64,000 bases of DNA, taken from the NCBI GenBank assembly GCA_965215275.1, contig OZ244044.1, positions 736,001 to 800,000 of the forward strand, in the 5' to 3' direction. Below the pieces are notes generated by a model. It had not been told where the DNA came from. It ran no database searches and worked only from the letters and a program-made list of their open reading frames with translations. Source of the DNA: Thermodesulfobacteriota bacterium. GTDB lineage: Bacteria > Desulfobacterota_D > UBA1144 > Nemesobacterales > JAJCZQ01. The position numbers were made by a program, and so were the translations under genes. Below, piece by piece: positions 31,546-37,954 of this stretch. The number at the start of each line of letters is the position of its first letter. Within the stretch, counting starts at the first letter, position 1.

Positions 31546-31576
31546 TAAATAAAGGGGAAATCAAGATTTATTTTTA

Positions 31577-35686: not shown

Positions 35687-36106
35687 TTAAGCTTCTCTTG
35701 AGGTCATATAGCTGCGAATGGCCTCCCAGTATTTCCACCAATAGGAGTTTTCAGGATGATTTGCCTTTTGCTGCTCCGTCCAGATCATTGCCTGCTCCTT
35801 GTCCTGATAAAGAAGGAACTTCTCTGCCGCGTCCTTTATCTCATCCTGATCTATCTCGATCTTGTTAAGGTCCTCTGATATAGCCGTGCTTATCTCGTCC
35901 AGAGAACGGTGGATCTTATCACACGCCTCCACGATACTTTCCGATTGACCACTGGTATCCTGACCGATAAGGTCCGCGTTGCCTTTGATCAGATCGACAA
36001 AATCAAGCAGGTGATCAGATGATCTTTTTGCTTTTTTAACCTCTTCTATAATTCTTGTATAGTCTTTTGCTGTCGGTGGCATTTTTTCCTCCTTGTTCTT
36101 TATCAA
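35687..36106 (-). CDS. Hypothetical helical protein
   Basis: ORF in host-like codon usage; probable start MPPTAK after GGAGG. Confidence 0.6.
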   Translation of the reverse strand: MIKNKEEKMPPTAKDYTRIIEEVKKAKRSSDHLLDFVDLIKGNADLIGQDTSGQSESIVEACDKIHRSLDEISTAISEDLNKIEIDQDEIKDAAEKFLLYQDKEQAMIWTEQQKANHPENSYWWKYWEAIRSYMTSREA

Positions 36107-36120
36107 CTACTTTAACTTAA

Positions 36121-36260
36121 GGGACTTATATACTTTAGTACATAAGTACTAAACATACTGTTCTGCAAGCAGAGTCCCTCTTAATTCCCCGTTCTCTTTT
36201 GATAAAACATTTACAGCCTGCATCGGGAACTCAAGTCTGGCTGTCCCACCCGACATAGTG
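36121..36260 (-). ncRNA. Putative omegaRNA scaffold overlapping the tnpB 3' end
   Basis: Conserved with 1-76 and 58417-58545; perfect hairpin tttagtac-ttat-gtactaaa; tcggg/cccga stem. Confidence 0.6.
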
Positions 36261-37602
36261 TCTTTTCACTATTGCAAATGTTTATAGCTGCATTCGTGTC
36301 TGCATGGTCTTTATGACCGCAATACACACACTTAAATACTTCTCCTTTTCTGTTCCTTTTATCTCTGTATCCGCACTCAGAACAGGTCTGTGACGTCCAT
36401 TGAGCCGGGTTCCTGATCAGCTTGCCACCAGTGCTTTTAACCTTGTATTCAAGCTGATTTAATACCTTGCCCAATTGCTGTTCCCGTAAGGACCTGTTTA
36501 ATCCAGATTTCTGCTTTACTTTCTTACCCGGATCTCCCACGGTCCCCTTTGCCGATCTGCTCATATCCCTTAATCTCAGATCTTCTGATATAACAAAATT
36601 ATACGCTCTTGACAGTTCTGTAGTTAACCTGTGTATTTTGTTATGTTCCTTTATTGCTGTTCTTGCTCGTTCCTTCCCAAGCAGTTTTACCTTCTTCTTT
36701 CTCCCGTTGGAACCTTTTTCAGCTCTTGAAACTGCTCTTTGCTTTCTTTTGTCTTTCTTTCTGCTTACTTCAGTTCCCTTGTAAAACGACCCATCTGATA
36801 AAGCAATCCTGTTCCTTACTCCAAGGTCTATTCCTATCGCTCTGTCCAGTCCTCTGTCCTCTCCAGCTATTGTTTCGTAAATAAACTGGATCTCTACTCT
36901 TAAAGCTGTTCTTAATATCCTGATGTATTTTGTTCCTTCCGGTATGCTTCCTCTGAATGAGATCCTGCCTGCTCCCTTTACCGTTAAATATGTCCTTCTC
37001 TCTCCTTTCTTTACATTTCCCCATGTATATGTTTCAAAACTTCTTACCTTCCTGCTGCTGTTCTTATATCTAGGACTGCCTCTCAATCCTTTAAGATGTT
37101 CACTGTATGCCTTATCCACTCTCTTTAACGTCCTTTGCTGTCCCTGAACGCCTGCCTTGCTGAATTCTTTCAATAAAACATCATTCCTTATCTCAGTCAG
37201 TGACTTCGCCTGATCTTCGTAACTTACTGACTTCTTCTTTATCTCCTGTTTTGTTAACTCTCTCCAGTTAACTGGATCTTCGCAAGGTCTTATAGTACTT
37301 ACAAACCTGTTAACTGCTTCATAAACTGTATCCAGATATTTAACTCTGTTCTTCTTGTTGTAAGAAGTACCAAACTCCCATTGTGGGTAGAAATACATCT
37401 GTAATCTTTCTTCTGACAAACCCCACTTCTTCAGCTTCTTGTATTTTTTGTACGCTTCTTTCCTTTCTTCCAGAGCGCTGTTATACAGATAGGTAAGCTG
37501 GTCCAAAGTCCTTTCCAAACCCTTATGAGTTGAAGGGTGATTCAATCCAGCCACTCTGCGTTCCGTCCTCGTCTGCTTAATTATCCTGTTTTCTCTATAC
37601 AT
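36211..37602 (-). CDS. tnpB: RNA-guided endonuclease TnpB
   Basis: AIGIDLGV, ISEDL, CSEC/CVYC, HADTNAA: RuvC D-E-D intact. Confidence 0.95.
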   Translation of the reverse strand: MYRENRIIKQTRTERRVAGLNHPSTHKGLERTLDQLTYLYNSALEERKEAYKKYKKLKKWGLSEERLQMYFYPQWEFGTSYNKKNRVKYLDTVYEAVNRFVSTIRPCEDPVNWRELTKQEIKKKSVSYEDQAKSLTEIRNDVLLKEFSKAGVQGQQRTLKRVDKAYSEHLKGLRGSPRYKNSSRKVRSFETYTWGNVKKGERRTYLTVKGAGRISFRGSIPEGTKYIRILRTALRVEIQFIYETIAGEDRGLDRAIGIDLGVRNRIALSDGSFYKGTEVSRKKDKRKQRAVSRAEKGSNGRKKKVKLLGKERARTAIKEHNKIHRLTTELSRAYNFVISEDLRLRDMSRSAKGTVGDPGKKVKQKSGLNRSLREQQLGKVLNQLEYKVKSTGGKLIRNPAQWTSQTCSECGYRDKRNRKGEVFKCVYCGHKDHADTNAAINICNSEKTLCRVGQPDLSSRCRL

Positions 37603-37730
37603 TCCTCTGTAATTATACCACGATCACACTTAGCTATTAAGTCCTTTGTTGGGTACTTAAGTATATAAGTCCCCAATTTTTTATTATGTTTATCCAACTC
37701 GTGATTTGTTTAAAGAATAAAGGTTAAGAT

Positions 37731-37868
37731 ATGGGTAGGAAACAAAAGATAATTCCCCCATTAGATGCAACATTTGATGAAGCAATAAAAATAATGTTTG
37801 CTCCCCAAATAGAACTATCTAAAAAATATAGAACTCAAAGAAAATTAAAAGAAAATGAAAAAAGTTAA
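37731..37868 (+). CDS. 45-aa micro-ORF between stacked cassette ends
   Basis: MGRKQKIIPPLDATFDEAIKIMFAPQ...; similar peptide at 45345-45476. Confidence 0.55.
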   Translation: MGRKQKIIPPLDATFDEAIKIMFAPQIELSKKYRTQRKLKENEKS

Positions 37869-37895
37869 GTAAATCAAAAGATTAAATTATCTTGG

Positions 37896-37940
37896 GTACT
37901 AAAGTATATAGTCCCCTTTTTTATTAAAGTATATAAGTCC
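37896..37940. repeat. Two further right-end motif copies
   Basis: gtactaaagtatatagtcccc (37896-37916) and ttaaagtatataagtcc (37924-37940). Confidence 0.8.
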
Positions 37941-37954
37941 GTCAATTAATGATC

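Follow-up and report, generated by a model that had tools for sequence, protein, structure and literature searches.

A tnpB gene carried between IS1595-type ends, with a predicted guide RNA that runs through the right terminal repeat

The window analysed here, a 64,000-nt stretch of contig OZ244044.1 from a Thermodesulfobacteriota bacterium, carries an IS1595-ended element whose cargo is an intact tnpB gene and a predicted guide RNA (Table 1). The reading we favour, with a probability of roughly 0.75, is that the element is moved in trans and that its TnpB cuts empty insertion sites. The cassette is 1,553 bp long and is bounded by two 21-nt arms that are complementary at 20 positions (95%), with tnpB as the sole long ORF between them; re-reading the arms and the ORF content bore out an earlier note on this DNA, which had described a 20/21 inverted repeat pair enclosing tnpB only. 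The putative tnpB promoter is a consensus match and nothing further (seven matches in the region against 4.5 expected). Two additional end sequences to the left of the cassette (37892-37916 and 37917-37941) were absent from that earlier account, as was the state of the target duplication, which in the window copy does not match (4/8). Since this copy lies against the 3' remnant of an IS1595-type element, followed by a 25-bp end stub, its left flank has probably been rearranged. The remnant is 92% identical to C1:889015-889218 and has weaker matches to IS1595 3' ends. Further IS1595-type end matches lie at 31574, 43976, 58417 and 61598 of the window, some beside restriction-modification-like genes.

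Table 1. Features of the tnpB cassette and its flanks (positions in the window)
Feature	Position	Strand	Remarks
Predicted 16-nt guide (host flank, leader of next gene)	36105..36120	-	Matches ISDra2 register; start uncertain by 1 nt
Right TIR; last 4-5 bases are the predicted pseudoknot 3' strand	36121..36141	+	
Predicted omegaRNA scaffold	36121..36258	-	5' boundary putative; topology compared with ISDra2
tnpB, 463 aa, RuvC triad and C4 zinc finger intact	36211..37602	-	
Insertion of ~68 residues (residues ~55-122)	37237..37440	-	Within the window's genome, in the A/B sub-branch only
Putative sigma-70-like promoter upstream of tnpB	37612..37640	-	10/12, extended -10
Left TIR, IS1595 type, cassette 5' end	37653..37673	-	18/21 identity with ends of intact IS1595 element C1:675417-678070
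IS1595-type element 3' remnant, adjoining the cassette and outside it	37674..37916	+	45-aa ORF 37731-37868; TIR copy 37892-37916
25-bp stub, variant end type that closes tnpB-less omegaRNA ends elsewhere	37917..37941	+	
Candidate 5' target duplication, decayed, for the composite insert as a whole	37942..37949	-	6/8 to 36113-36120; weak, A+T-rich

The protein carries the Pfam domains OrfB_IS605 and Cas12f1-like_TNB, and scores over the cut-off of the NCBIfam model guided_TnpB and far under that of IS607_TnpB. Its catalytic residues (D259, E340, D435) and zinc-finger cysteines (C407, C410, C425, C428) are invariant across four near-identical copies, which suggests, at the level of sequence, that the nuclease is catalytically intact, as had been claimed. 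An OrfB/RuvC fold, a D-E-D triad and a C4 zinc finger are all present, and place it among the TnpB RNA-guided nucleases. A rough count gave pN/pS values of 0.26-0.41 among the four close copies. The best natural relative of the clade with a solved structure is ISDra2 TnpB (E 7e-57). The AlphaFold model of the window protein is modest (pLDDT 64.8, pTM 0.42), with pLDDT below 50 for residues 66-114.

The window's genome, a single contig of 1.99 Mb (C1), contains three more copies of the cassette with 95-96% DNA identity, all of which match the window copy up to the repeat tips and no further. Altogether there are 23 TnpB-domain matches, 19 of them near full length; both IS1595-type ends flank every one of the 19, and 12 have an 8-bp duplication conserved at 7 or more positions, while the window copy and its three close sisters lack a matching one (1-6 of 8). 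A weight matrix built from the repeat finds 185 genomic sites, compared with 1-5 in five local shuffles, and these sites also bound most IS1595 transposase genes; given this excess, and copies that end at the tips, the repeat is not a chance resemblance. Two of the tnpB cassettes stand back to back, 16 bp apart, at C1 1616480-1619604, where one adjoins the other's duplication. Contigs from other sequencing runs, belonging to three studies, have loose ends at 36118-36121 in four of four runs and at 37673 in three of four. In three other genomes (G001-G003), the 130-aa gene found downstream of the cassette is present, and the interval between the two genes that flank the insert here is without it; an amidase-like gene lies directly upstream of the 130-aa gene in G001 and G002, and G003 aligns likewise. 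An empty allele was not seen in the four runs searched (of 24 listed), which is uninformative, as contigs drop rare variants; the listing of runs contained none of RNA.

Matches to the IS1595 transposase profile (PF12762) number 28 in the genome, and the one tested against NF033547 scored over the cut-off. The closest intact transposase element, whose transposase gene is at C1:677079-678053, has 18 of 21 bases in common with the cassette at each end. The cassette therefore shares its terminal repeats with transposase-bearing members of the IS1595 family, and a transposase is available to it in trans only. No element was found to hold both tnpB and a transposase: four pairs are neighbours within 3 kb, never inside one repeat pair, and a cis-linked arrangement was rejected on that ground. 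As no element contains both genes, the cassette is likely moved by IS1595 transposases encoded elsewhere. At four further places in the genome (C1 17470-21955, 1028600-1033127, 1496306-1500591 and 1897941-1900957), IS1595-type repeats and 8-bp duplications enclose large passenger ORFs of up to 1,183 aa, and no transposase was detected there.

The earlier note had proposed that a DDE-type TIR element recruited TnpB, and that homologous tnpB loci be surveyed for TIRs and linked transposases. We examined 149 near-full-length tnpB genes, of which 137 belong to two clades, T1 and T2 (the latter including the window's); the survey of these clades took in most, not all, of the listed loci. Both ends were called for 116 of the 137, one end for 18 and neither for three, and none had a transposase in the same element. 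The proposal is supported, and the family can be named as IS1595 from the ends, the transposases and the matrix. Among 36 genomes of a related genus (g10), TnpB is present in 29 and IS1595 matches in 31, and weak, single-copy Y1 matches occur in about 34-35. The protein behind the last is 270-310 aa long, one per genome, and looks domesticated. Titled records that contain relatives are mostly from Dadabacteria, together with two gammaproteobacteria and one labelled Spirochaetia. Two T2 cassettes of the same end type, in Arenicellales and Azotimanducaceae records (L087 and L105), group with the T2 genes of the window's genome and likely reflect transfer between phyla.

Elements of the IS1341 group make no target duplication and are served by a Y1 TnpA in cis or in trans, and those of IS607 have a serine recombinase partner, no TIR and no duplication. 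The window's genome has one weak Y1 match (C1 1883440-1883715, within a 274-aa frame) and no match to the resolvase profile PF00239. With TIRs and sister duplications present, and PF00239 absent from this genome, the cassette does not fit IS607; nor does it fit IS200/IS605 (IS1341 group), as no subterminal hairpin ends were seen, TIRs are present and sister cassettes have 8-bp duplications. The available part of a 2026 review describes IS200/IS605 elements of this group as having subterminal hairpin ends and no terminal inverted repeats (PMC13565253). It might still be imagined that a classical IS1341-type element, hairpin ends included, lies nested inside an IS1595 miniature element, particularly as one sister clade of T1 has classical right ends (hairpin-...GTCAA) and the genes descend from such elements. 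We regard this as extremely improbable, and on the aligned sequences it is largely refuted: the 3' regions contain no classical end inside the repeats, the copies match up to the repeat tips, none of the 19 genomic copies is without repeats, and IS200-type TnpA is limited to one weak single-copy match per genome. The earlier note had named nested hairpin ends, with conservation stopping before the TIR, as the pattern that would overturn its view; conservation instead reaches the tip.

Comparative evidence alone points to a structured RNA that overlaps the 3' end of tnpB and the right end of the element. In the predicted fold, stem 1 spans about 36255-36221 and carries a GGGAC loop at 36247-36243; there are central stems, and the TIR supplies the 3' arm of a terminal hairpin at 36158-36128. 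Of 72 T2 RNAs, 70 could be parsed, and in these a conserved GURYA segment pairs with repeat positions -8 to -12, with 95.7% of cells paired for four pairs against 3-66% when the segments are slid; the GGGA of the stem-1 loop pairs with the terminal UCCC in 68, 70, 69 and 68 of the 70. Over a 46-row alignment, the hairpin and pseudoknot helices are paired in 93.3% of 460 cells, a level reached by none of 500 shuffles and by no slid register (34-62%), and include 29 two-sided changes. Twenty-seven of these fall in the hairpin, where the covariation reflects a few subfamily switches and not 29 independent events; the five pairs of the pseudoknot contribute two cells, are mostly invariant apart from pair 5 (broken in 11 of 46 rows), and draw their support mainly from conservation. 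Minimum-energy folds of the 3' region cannot show pseudoknots, and the pairing they give between the repeat tip and a nearer GGGAC was rejected, that segment being unconserved as a partner and forming a small covarying hairpin. A pair between the base preceding the loop GGG and the +1 flank base fails in T2. A search of Rfam with the RNA region gave no match at E values up to 1. On these alignments, the RNA would run through the right repeat, which would supply both the terminal hairpin and one strand of the pseudoknot. As the loop and the tip fit the ISDra2 register, the guide is predicted to start at the first flank base, that is, at the end of the element (±1 nt).

Right ends that resemble the omegaRNA region and lack tnpB occur in the window's genome at C1 292708, 522451, 376692, 890742 and 1790331-1790429; two have a nearly full scaffold, four end in GTCCG, and some are found immediately 3' of genes that belong to a large repeated family. 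These ends could represent either remnants or guides that act in trans. In one locus (L012, G019:C4, 380-540), a T1-clade TnpB precedes two copies of a 39-nt repeat and a third, degenerate copy, separated by 27-nt spacers; the repeat terminates in TATTCCCAAG, resembling the IS1595 end, and the locus may be a CRISPR array that arose from the RNA end of the element. Tandem 36-nt CRISPR-like repeats are also present downstream of a T2-related tnpB (L228).

Two sources of the guide had been put forward in the earlier note, the host flank and the TIR itself. Flank guides taken from 19 elements each match their own flank, always preceded by CCC, and one has a second site at one mismatch; that of the window copy matches only its own flank in the genome at up to one mismatch, again after CCC. 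The left junction matches the guide for 8 nt at most before the repeat begins. The filled allele would escape cutting, since CCC stands before the full guide match and the similarity on the TAM side is limited to these 8 nt. In the other model the hairpin marks the end of the scaffold, and the TIR serves as a fixed guide against the ends of sibling elements, for which the ~185 copies of the repeat in the genome would offer targets. This is very improbable: the proposed seed (TIR -12 to -8) forms part of the hairpin stem, where compensatory changes are seen (A-U 28/G-C 14; U-A 30/G-C 13), the TIR tip fits the pseudoknot, and two 16-nt TIR-derived candidates have 4-5 perfect and 16-18 near genomic sites, the element's own ends included. 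It would also leave unexplained a purine outside the 5' duplication, described below. The RNA pairing, the register, the purine bias and the pattern of self-matches favour the flank as guide.

Insertion sites were compared for elements with a duplication of at least 7/8 after removal of orthologous sites (98 rows reduced to 94). Immediately 5' of the 5' duplication, the base is a purine in 65 of 66 tnpB elements, drawn from 25 source labels of which several may denote one genome, compared with 13 of 28 transposase elements. This control set is small, and a few of its rows may be orthologous sites missed by de-duplication. In G078, one IS has copies with shuffled flanks, likely assembly artefacts, and these were kept as controls only with a duplication of at least 7/8; the tnpB copy at C1:82022 is not among the 66. 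The subfamilies counted are kin. At the mirror position of the tnpB elements, a purine is found in 30 of 66. Within the window's own end class (TATATA), the figures are 36/36 for tnpB and 3/13 for transposase elements. The base in question is G in 35 of 39 T2 elements, and A in all eight A/B copies of the window's genome, five of which are without a good duplication; the ~68-residue N-terminal-lobe insertion of the A/B sub-branch coincides with this A. The first duplicated base is also biased (A in 27/27 T1, T in 16/16 T2 flanks of the window's genome), so the guide boundary may lie 1 nt further out. As the window copy has no matching duplication, its own TAM is not directly readable.

The purine just outside the 5' duplication is likely the TAM. 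That TnpB is instead passive cargo, and the purine a preference of certain transposase subfamilies or end sequences, is decidedly unlikely. IS1595 elements do show flank preferences (A/T inside the duplication), and in the TATAGC end class all four transposase elements have the purine, within a control set of just 28; a transposase preference should, however, be mirrored on the other side, so that a symmetric preference does not suffice for the asymmetry seen, for which a TAM would account. The contrast within the matched end class also speaks against it, and pN/pS near 0.3 together with the conserved RNA structure indicates selection on function. It is unlikely, too, that TnpB and its RNA steer the IS1595 transposase to TAM-bearing sites, in which case targeting at insertion, and not homing at a later stage, would produce the bias. 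In favour of steering, the bias is close to absolute and oriented with tnpB, transposase elements with the same ends lack it, and selection by itself would have to make the fixation of TAM-less insertions rarer by a factor of tens. Against steering, the RuvC triad is intact and conserved, the element has no adaptor gene, and the donor guide mismatches a new site, leaving TAM scanning alone usable. The site bias is compatible with homing or with TnpB-directed site choice, and the data do not separate the two.

Under the reading preferred here, cutting of empty sites, the guide would start with base 1 (or 2) of the 3' duplication, and the TAM would lie just outside the 5' duplication, as G in most of the T2 clade and as A in the A/B sub-branch to which the window's copy belongs. 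At an empty allele the order would then be TAM, duplication, flank; TnpB would cut it, and a filled copy would serve as the template for repair (homing or restoration). Such cutting likely helps the element to persist, and with repair it would leave nearly all fixed copies at purine sites.

The predicted RNA resembles that of the ISDra2 TnpB/omegaRNA complex (PDB 8H1J, 8EXA), in which, according to the part of the report available, pairing between -106..-102 and -6..-2 forms a pseudoknot and the guide begins after -1 (PMC10097598): in both, the stem-1 loop pairs with the last bases of the element, a terminal hairpin is present, and the guide comes from the right flank (by prediction here). ISDra2 differs in its Y1 transposase, hairpin ends, lack of a duplication, and a TAM that is the insertion motif; here the ends are inverted repeats, sister cassettes have an 8-bp duplication, and the likely TAM lies outside it. 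As far as the source on the IS1595 family goes (PMC8101967), its features are an 8-bp duplication, a zinc finger and a DDE domain. Like non-autonomous or passenger elements of that family, the present ones have GG-starting inverted repeats, 8-bp duplications on sister cassettes and zinc-finger/DDE transposases in the same genome, but their cargo is an RNA-guided nuclease, the scaffold is predicted to use the repeat, and the site skew is one-sided. Fanzor-bearing eukaryotic DDE transposons also place a TnpB-family nuclease in TIR elements that duplicate their target, and there, in the portion of the review available, the TAM includes the 5' duplication and the scaffold includes the 3' one (PMC13565253); here, by contrast, the guide is predicted to take up most or all of the 8 duplicated bp, and the RuvC-II glutamate is canonical (E340).

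The caution in the earlier note that novelty needs checking was warranted. In the sections available, Altae-Tran 2023 (PMC10691335) describes inverted repeats in six DDE branches (DDE-1 to DDE-6), solo TnpBs moved in trans, and RNA hairpins containing the element end; the main text, to that extent, leaves IS1595 unnamed and the supplementary information mentions it only in a profile list. The review (PMC13565253), in the part available, names ISL2, IS630 and IS1031 as TnpB partners and calls prokaryotic TnpB-DDE pairings rare and of uncertain benefit. Literature searches returned no description of a TnpB pairing with IS1595 or its subgroups in the titles and opening lines of abstracts. The present class may be DDE-5, which as described there has a TA motif 8 bp upstream of the end and is plasmid-rich (PMC10691335). 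The TA motif is found in three of three T1 and two of three duplication-bearing B/B2 copies of the window's genome, most T2 having G or TG; in contrast to the plasmid-rich DDE-5 branch, a T2 protein had no close plasmid relative among 10 records (best 30-39%).

T1 and T2 fall in separate branches of quick trees, and an AU test on 29 rows of a quick tree rejected a single clade (p=0.012). TnpB was likely captured by IS1595-type ends at least twice, a count that is tentative because the branches are long. Two tnpB genes near T2 have other inverted repeats, GGCTATTCGG... with an 8-bp duplication (L139) and GGTAGTGTCC... (L229), which suggests further captures. A bolder reading, rather unlikely in our estimate, is that TnpB and its RNA act on IS1595 transposition itself, selecting TAM sites for the borrowed transposase or driving new insertions to fixation with such strength that those lacking a TAM are hardly ever retained. 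Such a two-part nuclease-transposase partnership would have arisen at least twice because the IS1595 repeat tip can take the place of the IS605 pseudoknot strand.

The concept of a DDE-borne TnpB is already in print, and the surprise is limited accordingly. Insertion sites here yield TAM predictions (a short, purine-containing motif) for two clades of compact TnpBs, of possible interest for tool development. The elements also bear on the question of what use an RNA-guided nuclease is to a transposon whose insertion duplicates the target and follows no fixed motif, and offer a testable answer in which the repeat would be scaffold, the duplication would be guide, and the TAM would lie outside the duplication.
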